The notes under the pieces: generated by a model | Told to the model about the DNA's origin: nothing | Databases searched by the model: none | Seen by the model: only the letters and a program-made list of their open reading frames with translations | Shown: piece by piece, positions 10,623-44,805 of the stretch | How the letters are laid out: each line of letters opens with the position of its first letter | How positions within the stretch are numbered: the first letter of the stretch is position 1 | Program-made: the position numbers and the translations under genes | Assembly: GCA_036985855.1 (NCBI GenBank) | Contig: BTQL01000001.1 | Span: 10,920-74,919 of the forward strand | Length of the DNA: 64,000 nucleotides | Origin: Acidimicrobiia bacterium | GTDB lineage: Bacteria; Actinomycetota; Acidimicrobiia; Spongiisociales; UBA5794 | Direction of reading: 5' to 3'

Positions 10623-10630
10623 CACCCCCA

Positions 10631-10690
10631 ACGCCGCGTACCCAGGGTTCTACACCGCACTGAGTCCGGTCATCAGCCCAGAGAACGGAG
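10631..10690 (+). repeat. degenerate copy of the dispersed intergenic repeat (core cccagggttc..ctgagtccggtc..agccca.agaacgg)
   Basis: Roughly 85 percent identical by eye to the 61-bp unit at 18878-18999. Begins about 10 nt after the sdhB stop. Confidence 0.7.
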
Positions 10691-18877: not shown

Positions 18878-18999
18878 ACCCGTCGCGAACCCAGGGTTCT
18901 GGACCGGACTGAGTCCGGTCTACAGCCCACAGAACGGGACCCGTCGCGAACCCAGGGTTCTGGACCGGACTGAGTCCGGTCTACAGCCCACAGAACGGG
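18878..18999 (+). repeat. two perfect tandem copies of a 61-bp hairpin-containing intergenic repeat
   Basis: Unit acccgtcgcgaacccagggttctggaccggactgagtccggtctacagcccacagaacggg at 18878-18938 and 18939-18999. Internal 7-bp hairpin gaccgga-ctgag-tccggtc. Confidence 0.9.
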
Positions 19000-37416: not shown

Positions 37417-37459
37417 CTGCCAGTTGGTACAGCCTCGCCGATGGTGCGAAGCTCCATGT

Positions 37460-38797
37460 ATGGAGCCAACGCCCAAGAGGGAACCGACACAACGAGCTCC
37501 CCTCGATGTCGGGAAACGAGGACGGTTCGATCTGGGACCGGTTGGCGCCACAGCCGCGGTAGCGGGCGTAGTCGCCATCGCCATGACAATCGCCCTCGGA
37601 TTGATCATTCCCAACATCGTCGAAGAGCGCGTCCTCGAAGCGGGAGCGACATCGATCCACGAAGCGGTGGACGAGATAGGGAGTGCACTCTATTCCGGCG
37701 AGATGCTCACCGAGGATGACATCGCTCTTCTGCACGAGCAGGTCGAGCTGTCCCTGCTCGGACGGGAGATCGTCCGCGTGAAGATCTGGGACAACATGGG
37801 CACGATCGTGTACTCGGACGAGGAACGACTCATCGGCAGAAGCTACGAGATGTCCGATGATCTGCTCGCAGCCTTCAGCGGAGAGCTCATCTGGGAGGCG
37901 CCAGATCTCACCCTGCCCGAGAACGAGTACGAACGGGGACTCGGCGAACTTCGCGAATACTACGTGCCTGTGGACAGCGGCGGACAGGGTATCGAGATCG
38001 TGTTCGAGGTGTATGAACTCGCCGACACACTCGTCGCAACCGTGGCCAGCATACGCGCTGGCGTGTGGATCGCTCTCGGGATCGGATCCGCCGTACTCCT
38101 CGTGGCACTCGCGACAGCTGCCATTACGAATGCACGCGCCGAGCGGAACCGGATAGCGCGCTCCGAACGACTGATCGGCCAGCTCCTCGAGATACAAGAA
38201 GACGAGCGGACCAGGATCATAGGAGCACTTCATGATGACATCGGTCAGCCGCTGTACCGGATCATGTTCGGGCTCCAGGCAGGTCGGAGGATGGTCGAGC
38301 GGGGGTCCGAAGTCGACGAGGAGCTCACAAAGCTGGACCTGCTCGTCAGAGACGTCGACGCCACGTTGCGATCCGAGCTCACGAGCTTGCGAGATGAACC
38401 CGGCGTCGAGATCGATCTGGAATCTGCTCTCGCGGAGTTGGTCGAGGTCGCGGAAGACGAGACGAACCTGGACATCGAATTCATATCGGATGTGGAGACG
38501 GAACTTCCGCTCGCTCATCGTGCAACGCTGTACCGTGCCGCCAAGGAGGCACTGGCCAACGTCGACAAACATGCGTACGCCGACCATGTCACAGTACGGT
38601 TGCTGGAAGGAAGAGACTCGACGATGATCGAGGTGACGGACGACGGAGCCGGCTCCACGGGAGAGCCAGGACTCGGACTCACGACTACAAGGGACCGACT
38701 CGAAGCGATCGGTGGCGGCATCGTAGTGTCCGACGCCAAAGGTGGCGGCACACGTCTCGTTGCCTGGGTACCCATTGAACGCTCGGAGGGGCAATGA
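37460..38797 (+). CDS. sensor histidine kinase, HisKA_3 (NarX/DesK) type, with a ~150-aa extracytoplasmic domain
   Basis: Two TM segments flank a periplasmic-type domain. H-box EDERTRIIGALHDDIGQPL; HATPase (DDGAGS, GLGLTTTRDRLEAIGG). The start is ATG at 37460 or TTG at 37424. Confidence 0.8.
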   Translation: MEPTPKREPTQRAPLDVGKRGRFDLGPVGATAAVAGVVAIAMTIALGLIIPNIVEERVLEAGATSIHEAVDEIGSALYSGEMLTEDDIALLHEQVELSLLGREIVRVKIWDNMGTIVYSDEERLIGRSYEMSDDLLAAFSGELIWEAPDLTLPENEYERGLGELREYYVPVDSGGQGIEIVFEVYELADTLVATVASIRAGVWIALGIGSAVLLVALATAAITNARAERNRIARSERLIGQLLEIQEDERTRIIGALHDDIGQPLYRIMFGLQAGRRMVERGSEVDEELTKLDLLVRDVDATLRSELTSLRDEPGVEIDLESALAELVEVAEDETNLDIEFISDVETELPLAHRATLYRAAKEALANVDKHAYADHVTVRLLEGRDSTMIEVTDDGAGSTGEPGLGLTTTRDRLEAIGGGIVVSDAKGGGTRLVAWVPIERSEGQ

Positions 38798-39426
38798 TCC
38801 GGCTTGCGATCGCCGATGACCATCGGATCATTCGCGAGGGGCTCGATCTCCTCCTCGCGGAAGCGGATGACATTGAGATCGTTGCCCACGCATCTGACGG
38901 TCATGAGCTGATCGATATCCTCGAGACGACCGATATCGACGTGGTTCTCCTGGACGTGCGCATGCCGAACATGACAGGCCTCGACGTTCTCGGCACCATC
39001 GGGGAGCTAGGGATAGAGGTCGCCGTCGTGATGTTGAGCATGTACGGGGACCCGGTATACGTGAGCAGAGCTATCGAGCTCGGTGCATCCGGGTATCTGC
39101 TCAAGAGCGTCGGACAGGATGAACTCGTCCGTGCAATAGAGACGGTCGCTGGAGGGAAGCCCTACTTCCACGCAGAGGTGACCGGTCCTCTTGTCGCCCG
39201 ATTGGTCAACGGTGATGCACCCGGTCCGGTCGGAGAGATGTCCGTCGAGCAACTTCAGATTCTCCAGCTGCTCGCAGACGGTGCGGACAACACATCGATC
39301 GCAAACTCCCTGTCGGTGAGTGAAGCCACGGCGAAAGCGAAGCTGAGGGCAATCTACGGTTCTCTCGGCGTACAGCGGCGCTCGGAGGCGGTCGCCGTGG
39401 CAATGCGTCTCGGACTCATCACCTAG
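38794..39426 (+). CDS. NarL/FixJ-family response regulator (REC + LuxR HTH)
   Basis: IRLAIADDH.., LLDVRMPNMTG, LLKS; C-terminal HTH (NTSIANSLSVSEATAKAKLRAIY). ATGA overlap with the kinase. Confidence 0.9.
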   Translation: MIRLAIADDHRIIREGLDLLLAEADDIEIVAHASDGHELIDILETTDIDVVLLDVRMPNMTGLDVLGTIGELGIEVAVVMLSMYGDPVYVSRAIELGASGYLLKSVGQDELVRAIETVAGGKPYFHAEVTGPLVARLVNGDAPGPVGEMSVEQLQILQLLADGADNTSIANSLSVSEATAKAKLRAIYGSLGVQRRSEAVAVAMRLGLIT

Positions 39427-39631
39427 AACGAGGCCGTTCACAGCTCACAGTGTCCCACCATAGGGCCAAAGGTCACTTTCTCGACGACCGAAAGTATCCC
39501 TGAGGTCGATCCAAACGACACGTCGAAGGGTCCAAACGCCACTGATCCCGCTCCGCGCATTGTCATACGTTGTCCGCATGACATATAGACGCCACGAAGA
39601 AGGTGGCGAACTGACCGAGGAGGTCACTTCC

Positions 39632-41320
39632 ATGCGGACCAAGAGCAGATGGCTCGTGGTCGTGTTCGTGCTCGCCCTTGTCGCTGCTGCGTGTACCGGT
39701 TCCGAAGCCGAGGACGCCACAACGACGCAGGCACCAACAACGACAACAACGCTCGGATCGACTACAACCGAAGCACCACCGGCAACCGAGCCACCAACTA
39801 CAACTGAAGCACCTGCGCCCCCCGAAGAAGCGGCCATGGGACGTTCGTTGGTTGCTCCAGAGGCCGCGATCACGGTCGATGGTGACCCTTCGGACTGGGC
39901 CCTGGTTCCGGGTCTCGCTACGACACTCGAACCGATCGTCGAGGAAATGGGCGACGGGCTCGAGAACAAGGACGTCACCATCAAGATGGCGTATGACGAT
40001 GTGAACATCTACGCGCTGTTCACCGTCGACGACGACTACAACTGGAACGCCGACGACGCCCATCTCTCGGGTGCAGCCGCACTGCTGTTCCCCATCGACA
40101 CGGGTGGCCCACACATGGGCGCCGACGACGAGCTGGGCGAGGACTCAACCGGTTTGGTCGACATCTGGCACTGGGAACTCGAGTGTGCATCCGGCGTTGA
40201 CTCCGGTGGCGCTGTGAACCCTGCTGGTGACGGCAAGGACCCAGGCAACGACGCGACATGCAACTTCGACGACGAATGGGCATCGGACGCCGAAACCCGT
40301 GAAGACGACAACGGTGCAGGGGCAGAGAACAGCCTGCTCGGTGTATGGACACACTCCAACCCGACCGACGACGGGCCCGGTGTCTGGTACTTCGAGATGT
40401 CTCGCCCACTGCAAACCGGAGACGAAGGCGACGCACAGTTCACGGTAGGTGAAACGACACTGCTCGCCCTCGCCTACTGGGACGTCGACCTCGGACCCGA
40501 CGGTTGGCATGACGACTCCCACGTCCAGTCAGCCAACCAAGAATGGATCGAAGTCGACCTCGTGGCGACCACCGCCGAAGAAGCGGCCATGGGACGTTCG
40601 TTGGTTGCTCCAGAGGCCGCGATCACGGTCGATGGTGACCCTTCGGACTGGGCCCTGGTTCCGGGTCTCGCTACGACACTCGAACCGATCGTCGAGGAAA
40701 TGGGCGACGGGCTCGAGAACAAGGACGTCACCATCAAGATGGCGTATGACGATGTGAACATCTACGCGCTGTTCACCGTCGACGACGACTACAACTGGAA
40801 CGCCGACGACGCCCATCTCTCGGGTGCAGCCGCACTGCTGTTCCCCATCGACACGGGTGGCCCACACATGGGCGCCGACGACGAGCTGGGCGAGGACTCA
40901 ACCGGTTTGGTCGACATCTGGCACTGGGAACTCGAGTGTGCATCCGGCGTTGACTCCGGTGGCGCTGTGAACCCTGCTGGTGACGGCAAGGACCCAGGCA
41001 ACGACGCGACATGCAACTTCGACGACGAATGGGCATCGGACGCCGAAACCCGTGAAGACGACAACGGTGCAGGGGCAGAGAACAGCCTGCTCGGTGTATG
41101 GACACACTCCAACCCGACCGACGACGGGCCCGGTGTCTGGTACTTCGAGATGTCTCGCCCACTGCAAACCGGAGACGAAGGCGACGCACAGTTCACGGTA
41201 GGTGAAACGACACTGCTCGCCCTCGCCTACTGGGACGTCGACCTCGGACCCGACGGTTGGCATGACGACTCCCACGTCCAGTCAGCCAACCAAGAATGGA
41301 TCGAAGTCAAGGTCGGCTAG
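39632..41320 (+). CDS. lipoprotein with a Thr/Pro-rich linker and two identical EB_dh/DOMON-like (putative haem b-binding) domains
   Basis: ATG at 39632 after a gaggagg RBS. Lipobox LVAAAC, then a TTTQAPTTTTT..PPTTTEAP linker. Each ~245-aa repeat has ITVDGDPSDW, VTIKMAYDDVNIYALF, LLFPIDTGGPHMG, VDIWHWE, WYFEMSRPLQTGD and LALAYWD. The domain family was assigned from memory of Pfam EB_dh and not verified. Confidence 0.6.
   Translation: MRTKSRWLVVVFVLALVAAACTGSEAEDATTTQAPTTTTTLGSTTTEAPPATEPPTTTEAPAPPEEAAMGRSLVAPEAAITVDGDPSDWALVPGLATTLEPIVEEMGDGLENKDVTIKMAYDDVNIYALFTVDDDYNWNADDAHLSGAAALLFPIDTGGPHMGADDELGEDSTGLVDIWHWELECASGVDSGGAVNPAGDGKDPGNDATCNFDDEWASDAETREDDNGAGAENSLLGVWTHSNPTDDGPGVWYFEMSRPLQTGDEGDAQFTVGETTLLALAYWDVDLGPDGWHDDSHVQSANQEWIEVDLVATTAEEAAMGRSLVAPEAAITVDGDPSDWALVPGLATTLEPIVEEMGDGLENKDVTIKMAYDDVNIYALFTVDDDYNWNADDAHLSGAAALLFPIDTGGPHMGADDELGEDSTGLVDIWHWELECASGVDSGGAVNPAGDGKDPGNDATCNFDDEWASDAETREDDNGAGAENSLLGVWTHSNPTDDGPGVWYFEMSRPLQTGDEGDAQFTVGETTLLALAYWDVDLGPDGWHDDSHVQSANQEWIEVKVG
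39822..41308 (+). repeat. perfect tandem duplication: 734 bp (39822-40555) and 734 bp (40575-41308), joined by a 19-bp junction; period 753 bp
   Basis: The two blocks are identical on direct comparison. All shadow ORFs recur with identical sequence at +753 (e.g. 40020-40436 vs 40773-41189). Confidence 0.95.
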
Positions 41321-41423
41321 CGATAGTGCCACAACCCTCTCCTATCCGTGGAGACGCAGCGTTCATCTTCACGGATAGGAATGGGCTAGTGAACGGCCGG
41401 CCGCCGATGTACAGGAGTACCGA

Positions 41424-42401
41424 GTGAGTAAGAGACCCGAGAAAGTCAGGGGCAAAACAACGCCTCGAGATGAAGAGCCGATCCCTGTCGAGATCGTCGA
41501 CCGTAGGAGTGCAATCAAGTATCTCGGTATGGGCGCCCTCGGTGCGGTTCCATTGATGGCATCTCCTCGGGTCATGGACGGACTCGTCCGCGACGTCGTC
41601 GCAGGAACGGCCACGGAAGACCAGGCTGGAGATGCCGGTCCTGCAAGGACCAAGTCCGGCCGGATTCGTCAGTGGACGATGATCATCGACCTGGCGAAGT
41701 GTGACGGATGCCAGAGCCAGGGAACCCCACCTTTGTGCACCTCAGCCTGCATCGAAGGACATCTCGCTCCCCAGCCGATGCAATGGATCGAGATCTACGA
41801 AGCTGAACTGGGCGGTGGCGGCACACAGTTCATCCCGACGCCCTGCATGCAGTGCGAGAACCCACCGTGCGTAAAGGTATGCCCGGTTGGGGCGACCTTC
41901 TCCACCCCGGAGGGAACAGTTCTCATAGACCAGGAACGGTGCATCGGCTGCCGCATCTGTATGCCAGCCTGCCCGTACGACCGACGGTTCTTCAACTGGG
42001 GTAACCCGCCAGTCCCCCCCGAGGCTGCCCTCGCCGACTACCAGCCAGAGCATCAGGTCGCCTCGATCCGAGGGACGGTATACAAGTGCGACTTCTGCAC
42101 GGAGACGGTCAGAGACGGAACGCTCCCTTTCTGCGTCCAGGCATGCCCGAACGATGCCATCTGGTACGGAGATCTCGAAGAGGACATCGCAACGAACGGC
42201 CGCACGATCGTCAAGGCATCTCGCATGCTCTCCGACAACAATGCCTATCGGCTCAAGGAAGACCTCGGTACCCAGCCAAGGGTCCACTACCTGCCGGGTC
42301 ATGGAGAAGACGTTGGCCGGCATCCTGAGGATGAGGGTCGAATGCCAACGGAGTGGCCATGGATCGAACGAGCCGAGGGATCAGTCACATGGACTCGATG
42401 A
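41424..42401 (+). CDS. Tat-exported 4x[4Fe-4S] ferredoxin subunit (NrfC/PsrB/DmsB-like)
   Basis: Twin-arginine motif DRRSAIKYLG. Cys groups CDGCQ..C..C, CMQCENPPCVKVCP, CIGCRICMPACP and CDFC..CVQACP. Confidence 0.85.
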   Translation: MSKRPEKVRGKTTPRDEEPIPVEIVDRRSAIKYLGMGALGAVPLMASPRVMDGLVRDVVAGTATEDQAGDAGPARTKSGRIRQWTMIIDLAKCDGCQSQGTPPLCTSACIEGHLAPQPMQWIEIYEAELGGGGTQFIPTPCMQCENPPCVKVCPVGATFSTPEGTVLIDQERCIGCRICMPACPYDRRFFNWGNPPVPPEAALADYQPEHQVASIRGTVYKCDFCTETVRDGTLPFCVQACPNDAIWYGDLEEDIATNGRTIVKASRMLSDNNAYRLKEDLGTQPRVHYLPGHGEDVGRHPEDEGRMPTEWPWIERAEGSVTWTR

Positions 42402-43801
42402 CGAACTGGCGCGAACGACTCATCGGTAAGACGACGAGACCAACCCTCGTCACCACGTATCGGTACTGGCTGTGGTTGGGATTCCTCATCGTGATCGTGG
42501 TCAACAGCGGCTACCAGTATTCGAGACAGTGGCAGAACGGTCTGTACGTCACCGACATGCGGGACCGGATCTCGTGGGGTCTCTACATCTCGGCGTTTGT
42601 GTTCTTCATCGGCATCAGCCATGCAGGAACACTGATCTCAGCGATCCTTCGGGTATCGAAGGCCACGTGGAGGGCGCCGATCACGAGGATCGCAGAGTTC
42701 ATCACGGCCGTTTCGTTGTTGGTAGGTGCCTCGTTCGTACTCATCGACATGGGTCGCCCAGACAGGATCTTCAACGTCTTCCGATACGGCCGATGGCAAT
42801 CCCCGATCATGTGGGACGTCATGGCGATCACGACCTACCTGACGGCAAGTGTCATTTATCTGTACGCACCGATGATCCCGGACCTCGGCCTGTACAGAGA
42901 CCGGCTCGCGAACAAGGTCGGTGTCGTACGTAACTTCCTGTACCGAACACTCGCACTGAACTGGAACGCACTGCCGCAACAGGTCAAGTTCCTTGGCAAG
43001 GCCATCACGATCATGATGCTGATCATCATGCCCATTGCGGTGTCTGTGCACACAGTCGTATCGTGGATCTTCTCGATGACCCTGCGCGCTGGATGGAACA
43101 CCAGCATCTTCGGCGTGCTGTTCGTTGCCGGGGCGATCTTCAGCGGCGTCGCAACGCTCATCCTCGTCATGGCCGTACTGAGACGGATCTACCACTGGGA
43201 GGAGTACCTCACTGAGCAACACTTCCTGTACCTGGGGTATCTGCTCGCAGCGTTCGGTGCGTTCATGATCTACGTGAACATCAACGAGTACCTGACCGAA
43301 GGATTCAAGCTCGAAGAAGCCGGAGAGTTCGCCTTCCGTCAACTGTTCGTCGAGGACTTCGCCGTCATGTTCTGGTTCTACATCATCGGGGGCCTCATCG
43401 GGCCCATCGTCTTGATGTTGATCCCGAAAACCCGCACAATCGCAGGCGTGATCGTGGCTGCGATCCTTGTCGACATAGCGATGTTCCTCGAGCGGTACTT
43501 CATCGTGGTGACGGGTCTCCGCGTTCCCCTCATGCCGTATGAGCCTGCGAGCTACTCGCCTACGTTCGTGGAGTGGTCGATCTTCGCAGGAGGTTTGGCG
43601 TTCTTCGCGTTGCTGCTCACCGTTGCGGTCAAGATCTTCCCCATGCTCGCGGTGTGGGAAATGACCGAGGAACACGAGAAGATGCTTGCCCGCGACCATA
43701 CCGGGCAGCCACTGAAACACGAGGCGGACGTCGCTCTGTCCGGCGGACCGGCAGAGAGGTCGCCGGACCAGGGAGATCTCCACCGGGGAGGTGCATCGTG
43801 A
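42398..43801 (+). CDS. NrfD/PsrC-family polytopic quinone-interacting membrane subunit
   Basis: About 10 hydrophobic helices over 467 aa. ATG at 42398 forms an ATGA overlap with the ferredoxin stop. The position after an NrfC-like gene is typical. Confidence 0.75.
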   Translation: MTNWRERLIGKTTRPTLVTTYRYWLWLGFLIVIVVNSGYQYSRQWQNGLYVTDMRDRISWGLYISAFVFFIGISHAGTLISAILRVSKATWRAPITRIAEFITAVSLLVGASFVLIDMGRPDRIFNVFRYGRWQSPIMWDVMAITTYLTASVIYLYAPMIPDLGLYRDRLANKVGVVRNFLYRTLALNWNALPQQVKFLGKAITIMMLIIMPIAVSVHTVVSWIFSMTLRAGWNTSIFGVLFVAGAIFSGVATLILVMAVLRRIYHWEEYLTEQHFLYLGYLLAAFGAFMIYVNINEYLTEGFKLEEAGEFAFRQLFVEDFAVMFWFYIIGGLIGPIVLMLIPKTRTIAGVIVAAILVDIAMFLERYFIVVTGLRVPLMPYEPASYSPTFVEWSIFAGGLAFFALLLTVAVKIFPMLAVWEMTEEHEKMLARDHTGQPLKHEADVALSGGPAERSPDQGDLHRGGAS

Positions 43802-44805
43802 TTTGCCGTCACATCCAGTTCATCGTGCGTGTTTCAGTCTCGGTCTTCGCTGTTTTGGCGATACTGACCATGGCTACGTCCGCCTACGCAGCTGAGATCG
43901 GGATCAGCGTCGGTGCCCCTGAACGGGCCTCTGTCGGGCAAAACGTCGAGGTCAAAGCTGTGTTGTCTGAGAACGGAGTCCCCTTGGAAGGCGCTGAGGT
44001 CGCCTTGACGTACCAAGCATCGATGGCCGGAGAATCGGCCAGAGTCGAACTCGCGACGGCAATCACCGACGAAACAGGAACCGCGGTGATGATCTACCAG
44101 CAGCGGGCGGACGACAACCGCGAGATGCGCGTTGTCTATCTTGGGCCCGGAACCGATCCGGTAGAGCCATACGTCTTCACGATCGCCGTCGAACCGGGCG
44201 GCGAGCAACTGTATCGGTCGGAATCCGGAGTCGAGATCCCGTTCGTGAATGGCACGTTGGTGATTCTCGTTATCGCCACTGTGTGGTTTCTGATCGCCCT
44301 TGCAGGCGTCTACCTCGTCCGTGTAGGAAAAGCGGGACAACTGGTAGAGACACCGACCGGCGAGGACGGCTCGATGTGGATCAGCGTGCTGCTCGCATCC
44401 GCGGCAGTGTTCACCGCCATCGGCATGGTGATCGTGTTCGTCAGGGCTCCGGTGTCGAACGCGGACGTCACGGACCCGGAACGGTATGACCGTACGCCAA
44501 TCGTGTACATCGACAGCACGTATCCCTACGAAGGGTTCGGTCTCAACGATGAGTCGGTCGCGCAGACCGGCGACCCGATCAAGGACGGAGGCGCGCTCTA
44601 CTTCAAGTATGGGTGTGCCGCGTGTCACGGTCTCAACGGACAGGGCGCAGTGGTGGGCCCGACGCTCGTGGACGAGATCGGATCCTTCGGGAGCTTCAGC
44701 GAGGATGTGAGAGAAGGCACCAGGGGGATGCCCGAATACCACGACGTCACGATCTCAGACGAGAACCTCCAGAAGATCTACGCCTATCTCAAAGAGGGAC
44801 GCTAA
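43798..44805 (+). CDS. membrane-anchored monohaem c-type cytochrome with an N-terminal extracytoplasmic domain
   Basis: GTG at 43798 (GTGA overlap, ggggagg RBS). Signal/anchor VFAVLAILTMATSAYA, two internal TMs, then C-terminal YFKYGCAACHGLNGQG with a downstream Met (RGMPEY). Confidence 0.7.
   Translation: MICRHIQFIVRVSVSVFAVLAILTMATSAYAAEIGISVGAPERASVGQNVEVKAVLSENGVPLEGAEVALTYQASMAGESARVELATAITDETGTAVMIYQQRADDNREMRVVYLGPGTDPVEPYVFTIAVEPGGEQLYRSESGVEIPFVNGTLVILVIATVWFLIALAGVYLVRVGKAGQLVETPTGEDGSMWISVLLASAAVFTAIGMVIVFVRAPVSNADVTDPERYDRTPIVYIDSTYPYEGFGLNDESVAQTGDPIKDGGALYFKYGCAACHGLNGQGAVVGPTLVDEIGSFGSFSEDVREGTRGMPEYHDVTISDENLQKIYAYLKEGR

Follow-up and report, generated by a model that had tools for sequence, protein, structure and literature searches.

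Identical tandem EB_dh domains in a predicted lipoprotein gene of an Acidimicrobiia metagenome bin are probably kept alike by concerted evolution

We analyzed a 64-kb stretch of DNA from an uncultured marine Acidimicrobiia bacterium (the window, to which all positions below refer). It carries the gene of a predicted lipoprotein of 562 amino acids (positions 39632 to 41320, stop codon included), in which open reading frame (ORF) analysis, translation, and Pfam recognize two EB_dh domains. The DNA segments that encode the two domains are identical over 734 nt. Concerted evolution, by gene conversion within the gene or by unequal crossing-over, best explains the identical copies, and we consider it the probable explanation. 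Judged from comparison with related genes, the identical pair is an old two-domain gene and not a fresh duplication. The lipoprotein gene and all neighboring features described here are on the + strand, and L and P numbers denote related loci and proteins.

A base-by-base self-comparison of the window, offset by 753 nt, showed that positions 39822 to 40555 and 40575 to 41308 are the same 734-nt sequence, with 0 mismatches. Outside this match, self-similarity at the same offset falls to background on either side. A repeat search of the window recovered the same pair at a spacing of 753. The period of 753 nt equals 251 codons, and therefore the reading frame is kept. These comparisons confirmed what a preliminary description of the sequence had reported, namely identical 734-bp blocks with a period of 753 and a 19-bp in-frame junction. 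Copy 1 (39822 to 40555) encodes EB_dh domain 1, residues 64 to 308, with a domain envelope of residues 65 to 311. Copy 2 (40575 to 41308) encodes EB_dh domain 2, residues 315 to 559, with a domain envelope of residues 316 to 560. The 19-nt spacer between them (40556 to 40574; GACCTCGTGGCGACCACCG) encodes the inter-domain linker DLVATT(A). It differs from the 19 nt that precede copy 1 and from the 19 nt that follow copy 2. The layout is thus unique flank, repeat, spacer, repeat, and unique flank. Homology to copy 1 and its linker ends at the unique C-terminal codons K-V-G and the stop codon (41309 to 41320).

Several simple origins of the repeat were set aside. A clean head-to-tail doubling of 753 nt was rejected because the spacer matches neither flank. 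Chance was ruled out as the origin of the 734-nt identity. A mobile element or a horizontally acquired island was also rejected: the flanks are housekeeping genes that are syntenic in relatives. Base composition over the repeat is unremarkable, and there are no signs of foreign DNA. The pair is the sole long repeat in the 64-kb window, which holds no third copy of the EB_dh domain.

The two-domain layout has a long history among the relatives. Homologues returned by a database search included many two-domain proteins of about 560 residues as well as many single-domain proteins of about 310. The two-domain relatives share an inter-domain linker across lineages, VNLVTTTAEEA and its variants, to which the DLVATTAEEA of the window corresponds; the unconverted spacer is orthologous to NLVTTTA in these relatives. 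Among the syntenic orthologues, L159 and L001 are the closest; in each, the two domains share 80 to 83% DNA identity, and the window gene is colinear with both from start to stop, linker included. Domains also follow their position in the gene. L007 and L059 are 95% identical for each domain, whereas the two domains within a gene are 68 to 70% identical. The same grouping of domain 1 with domain 1 and domain 2 with domain 2 was found in P0035/36/38/46, in P0026/27, and in L006 with L007 and L059. The shared linker, the colinearity, and the positional orthology together indicate that the two-domain layout predates the split from relatives with diverged copies. The preliminary description had taken relatives with two clearly diverged copies as the mark of an old and stable duplication. 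Such relatives exist and the duplication is old, but it has not been stable.

Identical or nearly identical copies recur across the family. At the protein level, the two domains are at least 97% identical to each other in 13 of 32 two-domain homologues and 65 to 94% identical in the others. Perfect DNA runs were found at nine loci from different projects: the window (734 nt), L162 (733 nt), L082 (730 nt), L078 and L161 (727 nt each), L084 (716 nt), L158 (712 nt), L002 (707 nt), and L086 (689 nt). The periods at all nine are multiples of 3 (741 to 756), and the unconverted spacers measure 17 to 58 nt. Where computed, the nearest outside relative of each homogenized pair is 77 to 86% identical. 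Therefore, the pairs cannot share one homogenizing event. The window copies are 100% identical to each other and 84 to 85% identical to the nearest outside unit. Copies within a genome are likewise more alike than orthologues between genomes in L078, L082, L084, L002, L158, L086, and L162, and L161 behaves like L078. Over 5.4 kb, L078 and L161 share 95.4% identity, and their units are separated by 12 substitutions. Each of the 12 is found twice per genome, once in either copy, because the copies within each genome are perfect.

Other relatives carry intermediate states. In L008, a Dehalococcoidia chromosome record, the pair is 93% identical and mosaic, with a 185-nt perfect core. Neighboring copies in L083, which has at least four domains, are 91 to 99% identical, and L005 and L017 have short perfect patches within otherwise diverged pairs. 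In a permutation test that kept codon position, the runs were significant in L008, L083, L005, L017, and L086 (P < 0.001), and strongly diverged pairs were not significant. Partial or mosaic tracts with variable ends are thus present in relatives but not in the window. Differences between copies are more frequent at the third codon position than at the first and second. This excess, together with residues that are invariant in both domain positions, indicates that both copies are under purifying selection. Ongoing gene conversion was among the explanations offered in the preliminary description, and it is the one that the comparative data support.

We propose the following course of events. 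The gene would be an old one that encodes a protein lipid-anchored at the outer side of the membrane, with a disordered Thr/Pro tether and two EB_dh β-sandwich domains. Homologous recombination within the gene would have made both domain segments identical, either by gene conversion or by cycles of unequal crossing-over that pass through three-copy and two-copy states. The homogenized tract would span all homologous sequence and would be bounded by the tether on one side and by the linker or the stop codon on the other. Where recombination outpaces mutation, the copies would stay identical; otherwise they would escape to about 65 to 85% identity. Such a balance would account for the gap that separates identical from diverged pairs. 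Domain number (1, 2, or at least 4 at syntenic loci) may also be altered through this recombination substrate.

In the window, domain 2 was probably the donor that overwrote domain 1, although this assignment is tentative. At the protein level, the window unit is 87% identical to domain 2 of P0002 and 80% identical to domain 1. In DNA, it is 84 to 85% identical to the second domain of L159 and L001 and 80 to 82% identical to the first. The second-domain signal peaks toward both ends of the unit and is mixed between them, and the N-terminal edge, EEAAMGRSL, has the form found in the second domain of relatives.

L001 (484 to 1968) and L159 (10245 to 11727) come from closely related genomes, and their genes differ at 8 sites in the second domain and at 77 in the first. 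The first domain is thus changing about 10 times faster; some of its patches match the resident second domain, and others come from elsewhere. In an outgroup-polarized test for patchy conversion in this pair, 30 to 54% of the derived bases matched the resident second domain, in clusters, with outgroups that are about 80% identical.

The way in which the sequence was obtained bears on how the exact identity is read. BMS9Abin12, the metagenome-assembled genome in which the product was found, derives from the Southern Mariana Trough, where iron-hydroxide-rich material was taken from a massive sulfide deposit that is inactive; MiSeq PE300 reads were assembled with metaSPAdes 3.14.1 at k = 77 to 121 (PMC11427306). 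The window comes from this metagenome bin. No read of the library is as long as the 734-nt repeat or spans it, and therefore the exact identity and the count of two rest on how the assembler handled a loop in its graph. In a de Bruijn graph, repeat, spacer, and repeat form such a loop, which an assembler can traverse as few times as possible once it has merged small differences between the copies. A search of the contig index gave no exact match to the window protein, so that a second assembly of the same population was not available for comparison.

Several points weigh against concerted evolution as we describe it. All the examples of perfect identity come from metagenome assemblies. An assembler that merged small differences and walked the loop twice would print identical copies. 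Such merging makes perfect pairs look more numerous and could also yield the parallel substitutions of L078 and L161. L144 (tether, repeat, and 3' flank, with one domain) and L114 (repeat tail, linker, repeat, and 3' flank) are 99.8% identical, and their conflict means that copy number in such assemblies is unreliable or polymorphic. The donor direction was taken from relatives that are about 16% diverged, with a mixed signal in the middle of the unit. The polarized test with L001 and L159 is noisy and suggestive only. On the functional side, haem binding by the protein and its link to an NrfCD-like module, both discussed below, are read only from the predicted fold, the conserved residues, and the gene order.

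One rival explanation is a partial assembly artefact, in which at least two very similar but non-identical copies were merged into a consensus, so that the exact zero and the count of two are products of assembly. The length of the repeat relative to the reads and k-mers favors this explanation, as do the L144/L114 conflict and the excess of exactly perfect pairs (the nine loci) over slightly diverged ones. Several related contigs end 87 to 127 nt into the next copy, as expected if assemblers break at the branch point of a repeat. However, merging requires copies that are already nearly identical, and recent homogenization would still be needed. The L159 and L001 copies, which are about 80% identical, were assembled separately. 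The 712-nt perfect run of L158 lies on a 2.29-Mb scaffold with no Ns nearby, and the chromosome-level L008 record resolves a mosaic pair that is 93% identical. Both point the same way, toward real homogenization, although a literature search for the accessions of the two long records (ERZ21269682 for the 2.29-Mb scaffold, and OY762261.2), made to learn their sequencing platforms, found no paper. We regard the partial artefact as rather unlikely. A complete false duplication, in which the second copy was made by the assembler, for example by joining strains, and the genome truly has one domain, is scarcely credible. Metagenome assemblers can make chimeras of strains, and related populations have single-domain alleles. 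However, the junction of domain end, linker, and domain start must be present in the reads for the path to exist, the linker is conserved in real two-domain orthologues, and the same architecture is found in at least 30 independent assemblies. An assembly can neither invent that junction nor merge copies that are 80% identical. Strong recent homogenization in the window lineage therefore stands either way. The assembly artefact raised in the preliminary description may thus affect the exact zero and the copy number but could not have created the junction or merged copies that are 80% identical.

A very recent tandem duplication of a single-domain gene in the window lineage would account most directly for zero divergence, synonymous sites included. 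L160 and L164 have single-domain genes at the syntenic locus, and in some distant relatives such as P0022 the identity runs into the linker, which would fit new duplications there. In the window, however, the 734 nt of identity fall short of the 753-nt period, and neither flank is copied in the 19-nt spacer. The spacer encodes a linker that is orthologous to that of diverged two-domain relatives, and the whole gene is colinear with theirs; a recent duplication would not recreate that linker. We consider this origin very unlikely. A very recent duplication was one of the three explanations in the preliminary description, and the one that its title implied; it is not supported, since the gene and its linker are colinear with orthologues whose domains are about 80% identical. 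Concerted evolution of an old pair remains our preferred explanation.

The number of EB_dh domains differs among relatives. At syntenic loci, we counted one domain in L160 and L164, two in the window, L159, L161, and L162, and at least four in L083. In L083 (5809 to 8898), the kinase and regulator genes are followed by a gene in which the same linker separates the EB_dh domains, at least four in number, the fourth of which is cut off by the contig end. The lineages with differing domain number are 15 to 25% apart. The variation is therefore between lineages and not within one population. The preliminary description had suggested that domain number may vary within a population; a variable number (1, 2, or at least 4) was borne out at the level of lineages. 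Further afield, the Chloroflexota locus L014 (6824 to 10997) has four diverged EB_dh domains in one ORF and a single-domain ORF upstream, and L065 (5916 to 9831), also from Chloroflexota, has three adjacent single-domain EB_dh ORFs. Multiplication of EB_dh is therefore not limited to Acidimicrobiia.

The ORF that encloses the repeat extends from 39560 to 41320. The start codon is likely the ATG at 39632, and a GAGGAGG motif lies 9 to 15 nt 5' of it. The predicted signal peptide (39632 to 39694) ends in the lipobox-like LVAAAC, and Cys21 (39692 to 39694), which is invariant among 25 aligned two-domain homologues, is predicted to carry the lipid. The signal peptide and the invariant cysteine are consistent with a surface-anchored lipoprotein. 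Residues 22 to 63 (39695 to 39821) form a low-complexity tether rich in Thr and Pro, and AlphaFold2 gave a predicted local distance difference test (pLDDT) score below 50 over residues 21 to 67. Within the tether, Tandem Repeats Finder identified an imperfect 18-nt tandem repeat (39764 to 39813, 2.8 copies) that encodes a Thr/Pro stretch of the TTEAP type. This repeat is a possible second source of length variation in the same protein. In a database search, the 562-amino-acid product matched, with 100% identity, a hypothetical protein of "Acidimicrobiia bacterium BMS9Abin12", a metagenome-assembled genome.

Pfam matched EB_dh (PF09459) in two stretches at 95.9 bits, against a cut-off (gathering threshold) of 33.3, and found no other domain in the product. 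The AlphaFold2 model, built with 61 homologues, has a mean pLDDT of 84 and a predicted template modeling (pTM) score of 0.81; the domains are mostly above a pLDDT of 85. The top matches of the model among solved structures (Foldseek) were the haem-b subunits NxrC (7b04_C) and EbdC (2ivf_C), with E = 1e-9 to NxrC and a target-normalized TM of 0.75 to EbdC. Family 9 carbohydrate-binding modules came next. In the 25-homologue alignment, Met162/413, His297/548, and two Cys residues per domain are invariant in both domain positions. In the gamma subunits to which NxrC and EbdC belong, the axial ligands of haem b are Met and Lys. Here Met162/413 is invariant, as is His297/548, but no Lys is; the alignment to solved structures is too weak to map the ligands. 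When solved structures were searched by sequence, neither a single domain nor a profile of 26 sequences reached more than a weak match to NxrC, and the haem ligands were not placed. The protein probably binds haem, as judged from the modeled fold, the conserved residues, and the gene order. Many of the homologues P0082 to P0120 are of about 430 residues; this group has one EB_dh domain fused to a Cytochrome_CBB3 haem-c domain. Such fusions support a redox role of the domain over a carbohydrate-binding one.

The gene stands in a cluster whose order is S9 peptidase, HisKA_3 kinase, NarL-type regulator, EB_dh lipoprotein, iron-sulfur (Fe-S) protein, NrfD-family protein, c-type cytochrome, and a second kinase-regulator pair, with housekeeping genes on its outer flanks. 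Pfam identified the histidine kinase (37424 to 38797; HisKA_3 and HATPase_c) and the NarL/LuxR-type response regulator (38794 to 39426; Response_reg and GerE), and both are conserved in L158, L159, L160, L161, L162, and L164. This upstream two-component pair may regulate the cluster. Downstream, an exported Fe-S protein of the four-cluster type (41424 to 42401; Fer4_11) carries the twin-arginine motif RRSAIKYLG and resembles NrfC, DsrO, and QrcC. Its best NCBIfam matches are DsrO, QrcC, and NrfC, all far below the cut-offs. The next gene (42353 to 43801, start codon uncertain) encodes an integral membrane protein of the NrfD family (Pfam NrfD, E = 2e-38), a quinone-interacting subunit, with weak NCBIfam matches to DsrP and QrcD that are below the cut-offs. 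A c-type cytochrome with a C-terminal Cytochrome_CBB3 domain by Pfam follows (43573 to 44805). It probably starts near 43798, as in relatives with a protein of about 335 amino acids (gene calls of L159, L160, L162, and L164). No molybdopterin oxidoreductase gene was found between about 29.6 and 52 kb.

Just 3' of the lipoprotein stop codon lies a hairpin (41341 to 41381) with a 15-bp stem and no T-run. Folding of 41318 to 41400 gave -33.8 kcal/mol (z = -3.5 versus shuffled sequences). The terminator scan did not call this hairpin, which may be a transcript-end or stabilizing element between the lipoprotein and Fe-S genes. A promoter and terminator scan around the gene found nothing above the shuffled expectation, and Rfam identified no RNA family anywhere in the window.

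The cluster from the kinase to the cytochrome c is conserved in L159, L160, L161, L162, and L164. In L158 (8001 to 14275), the NrfC/NrfD-like pair is replaced: the genes next to the kinase, the regulator, and a two-domain EB_dh gene there encode a Rieske protein, a cytochrome c, and a split cytochrome b. The L158 context therefore indicates that the lipoprotein pairs with different quinol-oxidizing complexes. From the gene cluster of the window, we infer a role in extracytoplasmic electron transfer. The lipoprotein would be the haem-binding electron-transfer partner of the adjacent quinone-linked module, that is, of the NrfC-like Fe-S protein, the NrfD-like protein, and the cytochrome c. Literature searches with the Pfam accession and with ethylbenzene dehydrogenase, NrfD, and Acidimicrobiia found no description of the cluster. 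The results thus add a conserved, undescribed cluster in uncultured Acidimicrobiia, in which an extracytoplasmic haem-type domain varies in number.

In bacteria, duplicated genes can evolve in concert through gene conversion; the tufA/tufB genes and the rRNA operons are classical examples. The EB_dh pairs resemble them in that paralogues in one genome are closer to each other than orthologues from different genomes and that substitutions are found in both copies. They also share mosaic tracts and a gap between homogenized and escaped pairs. Unlike those genes, the copies here are adjacent domains in one reading frame, and therefore the same recombination changes the length of the protein. The family thus offers a clear example, in multiple lineages, of concerted evolution that acts on whole domains inside one gene, with kept-identical and escaped pairs side by side. 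The escaped pairs were assembled without ambiguity. There is also a caution: short-read metagenome bins are not a reliable source for the number of EB_dh domains or the identity of their copies, and collapsed arrays may account for some single-domain members of the family. These results do not overturn current understanding.

At the level of the domain, the protein resembles the haem-b gamma subunits of the type II dimethyl sulfoxide (DMSO)-reductase family, EbdC (PDB 2ivf_C) and NxrC (PDB 7b04_C). It has the same Pfam domain, EB_dh, and the same predicted fold, and its gene adjoins that of an exported multi-cluster Fe-S protein. In contrast to these subunits, it scores only 29.3 bits against TIGR03477, for which the cut-off is 169.85, and there is no molybdopterin catalytic subunit nearby. 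It is also predicted to be lipid-anchored and is tandemly doubled, and its invariant Met is accompanied by an invariant His instead of an invariant Lys. The neighbors, a Tat (twin-arginine translocation)-exported Fe-S protein and an NrfD-family protein followed by a cytochrome c, are like those of NrfCD, DsrOP, and QrcCD modules. However, the NCBIfam matches are far below the cut-offs, and the module is therefore not a member of any named complex. We found no description of the pairing of an NrfCD-type module with an EB_dh lipoprotein in the literature searched.

Periscope proteins (SasG/Aap, Rib/alpha C, and the SHIRT arrays of Sgo_0707; Whelan et al. 2021, PMC8201768) offer a second comparison. 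As in these proteins, tandem folded domains of a predicted surface-anchored protein are encoded by near-identical or fully identical DNA copies (734 of 734 nt here). Domain number, which differs between close homologues in the Periscope proteins, differs here among lineages 15 to 25% apart, and the disagreement of the one nearly identical pair, L144 and L114, may reflect assembly. In both, sizing the array takes long reads, and short ones do not suffice (PMC8201768). The differences are considerable. The array in the window is short (two domains, and at least four in one relative), and its unit is a putative haem-binding redox domain of about 250 residues and not an immunoglobulin-like stalk module. 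There is no separate distal ligand-binding domain, since Pfam and the tether account for the protein as a tether and two EB_dh domains only. The anchor is a lipobox and not LPXTG, and the gene lies in a cluster of respiratory type. We therefore do not class the window protein as a Periscope member.

A more speculative idea is that the tandem EB_dh array is a redox stalk of adjustable length. It would be a lipid-tethered chain of haem domains that passes electrons from the NrfCD-like module toward mineral surfaces, over a distance that depends on the number of domains and hence on recombination; the organism comes from an iron-hydroxide-rich zone of the sulfide deposit. On this view, identical copies would be maintained to keep the number changeable and would not be a by-product. 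We regard this idea as a long shot.

A 61-nt element with an internal palindrome (GGACCGGACTGAGTCCGGTC) is also present in the window, as two perfect head-to-tail copies at 18878 to 18999, and a copy that is 80% identical lies at 10629 to 10689. Judged by ORF positions, both sites are mainly between long ORFs, which suggests that the element is a small repeat like the repetitive extragenic palindromic (REP) sequences.

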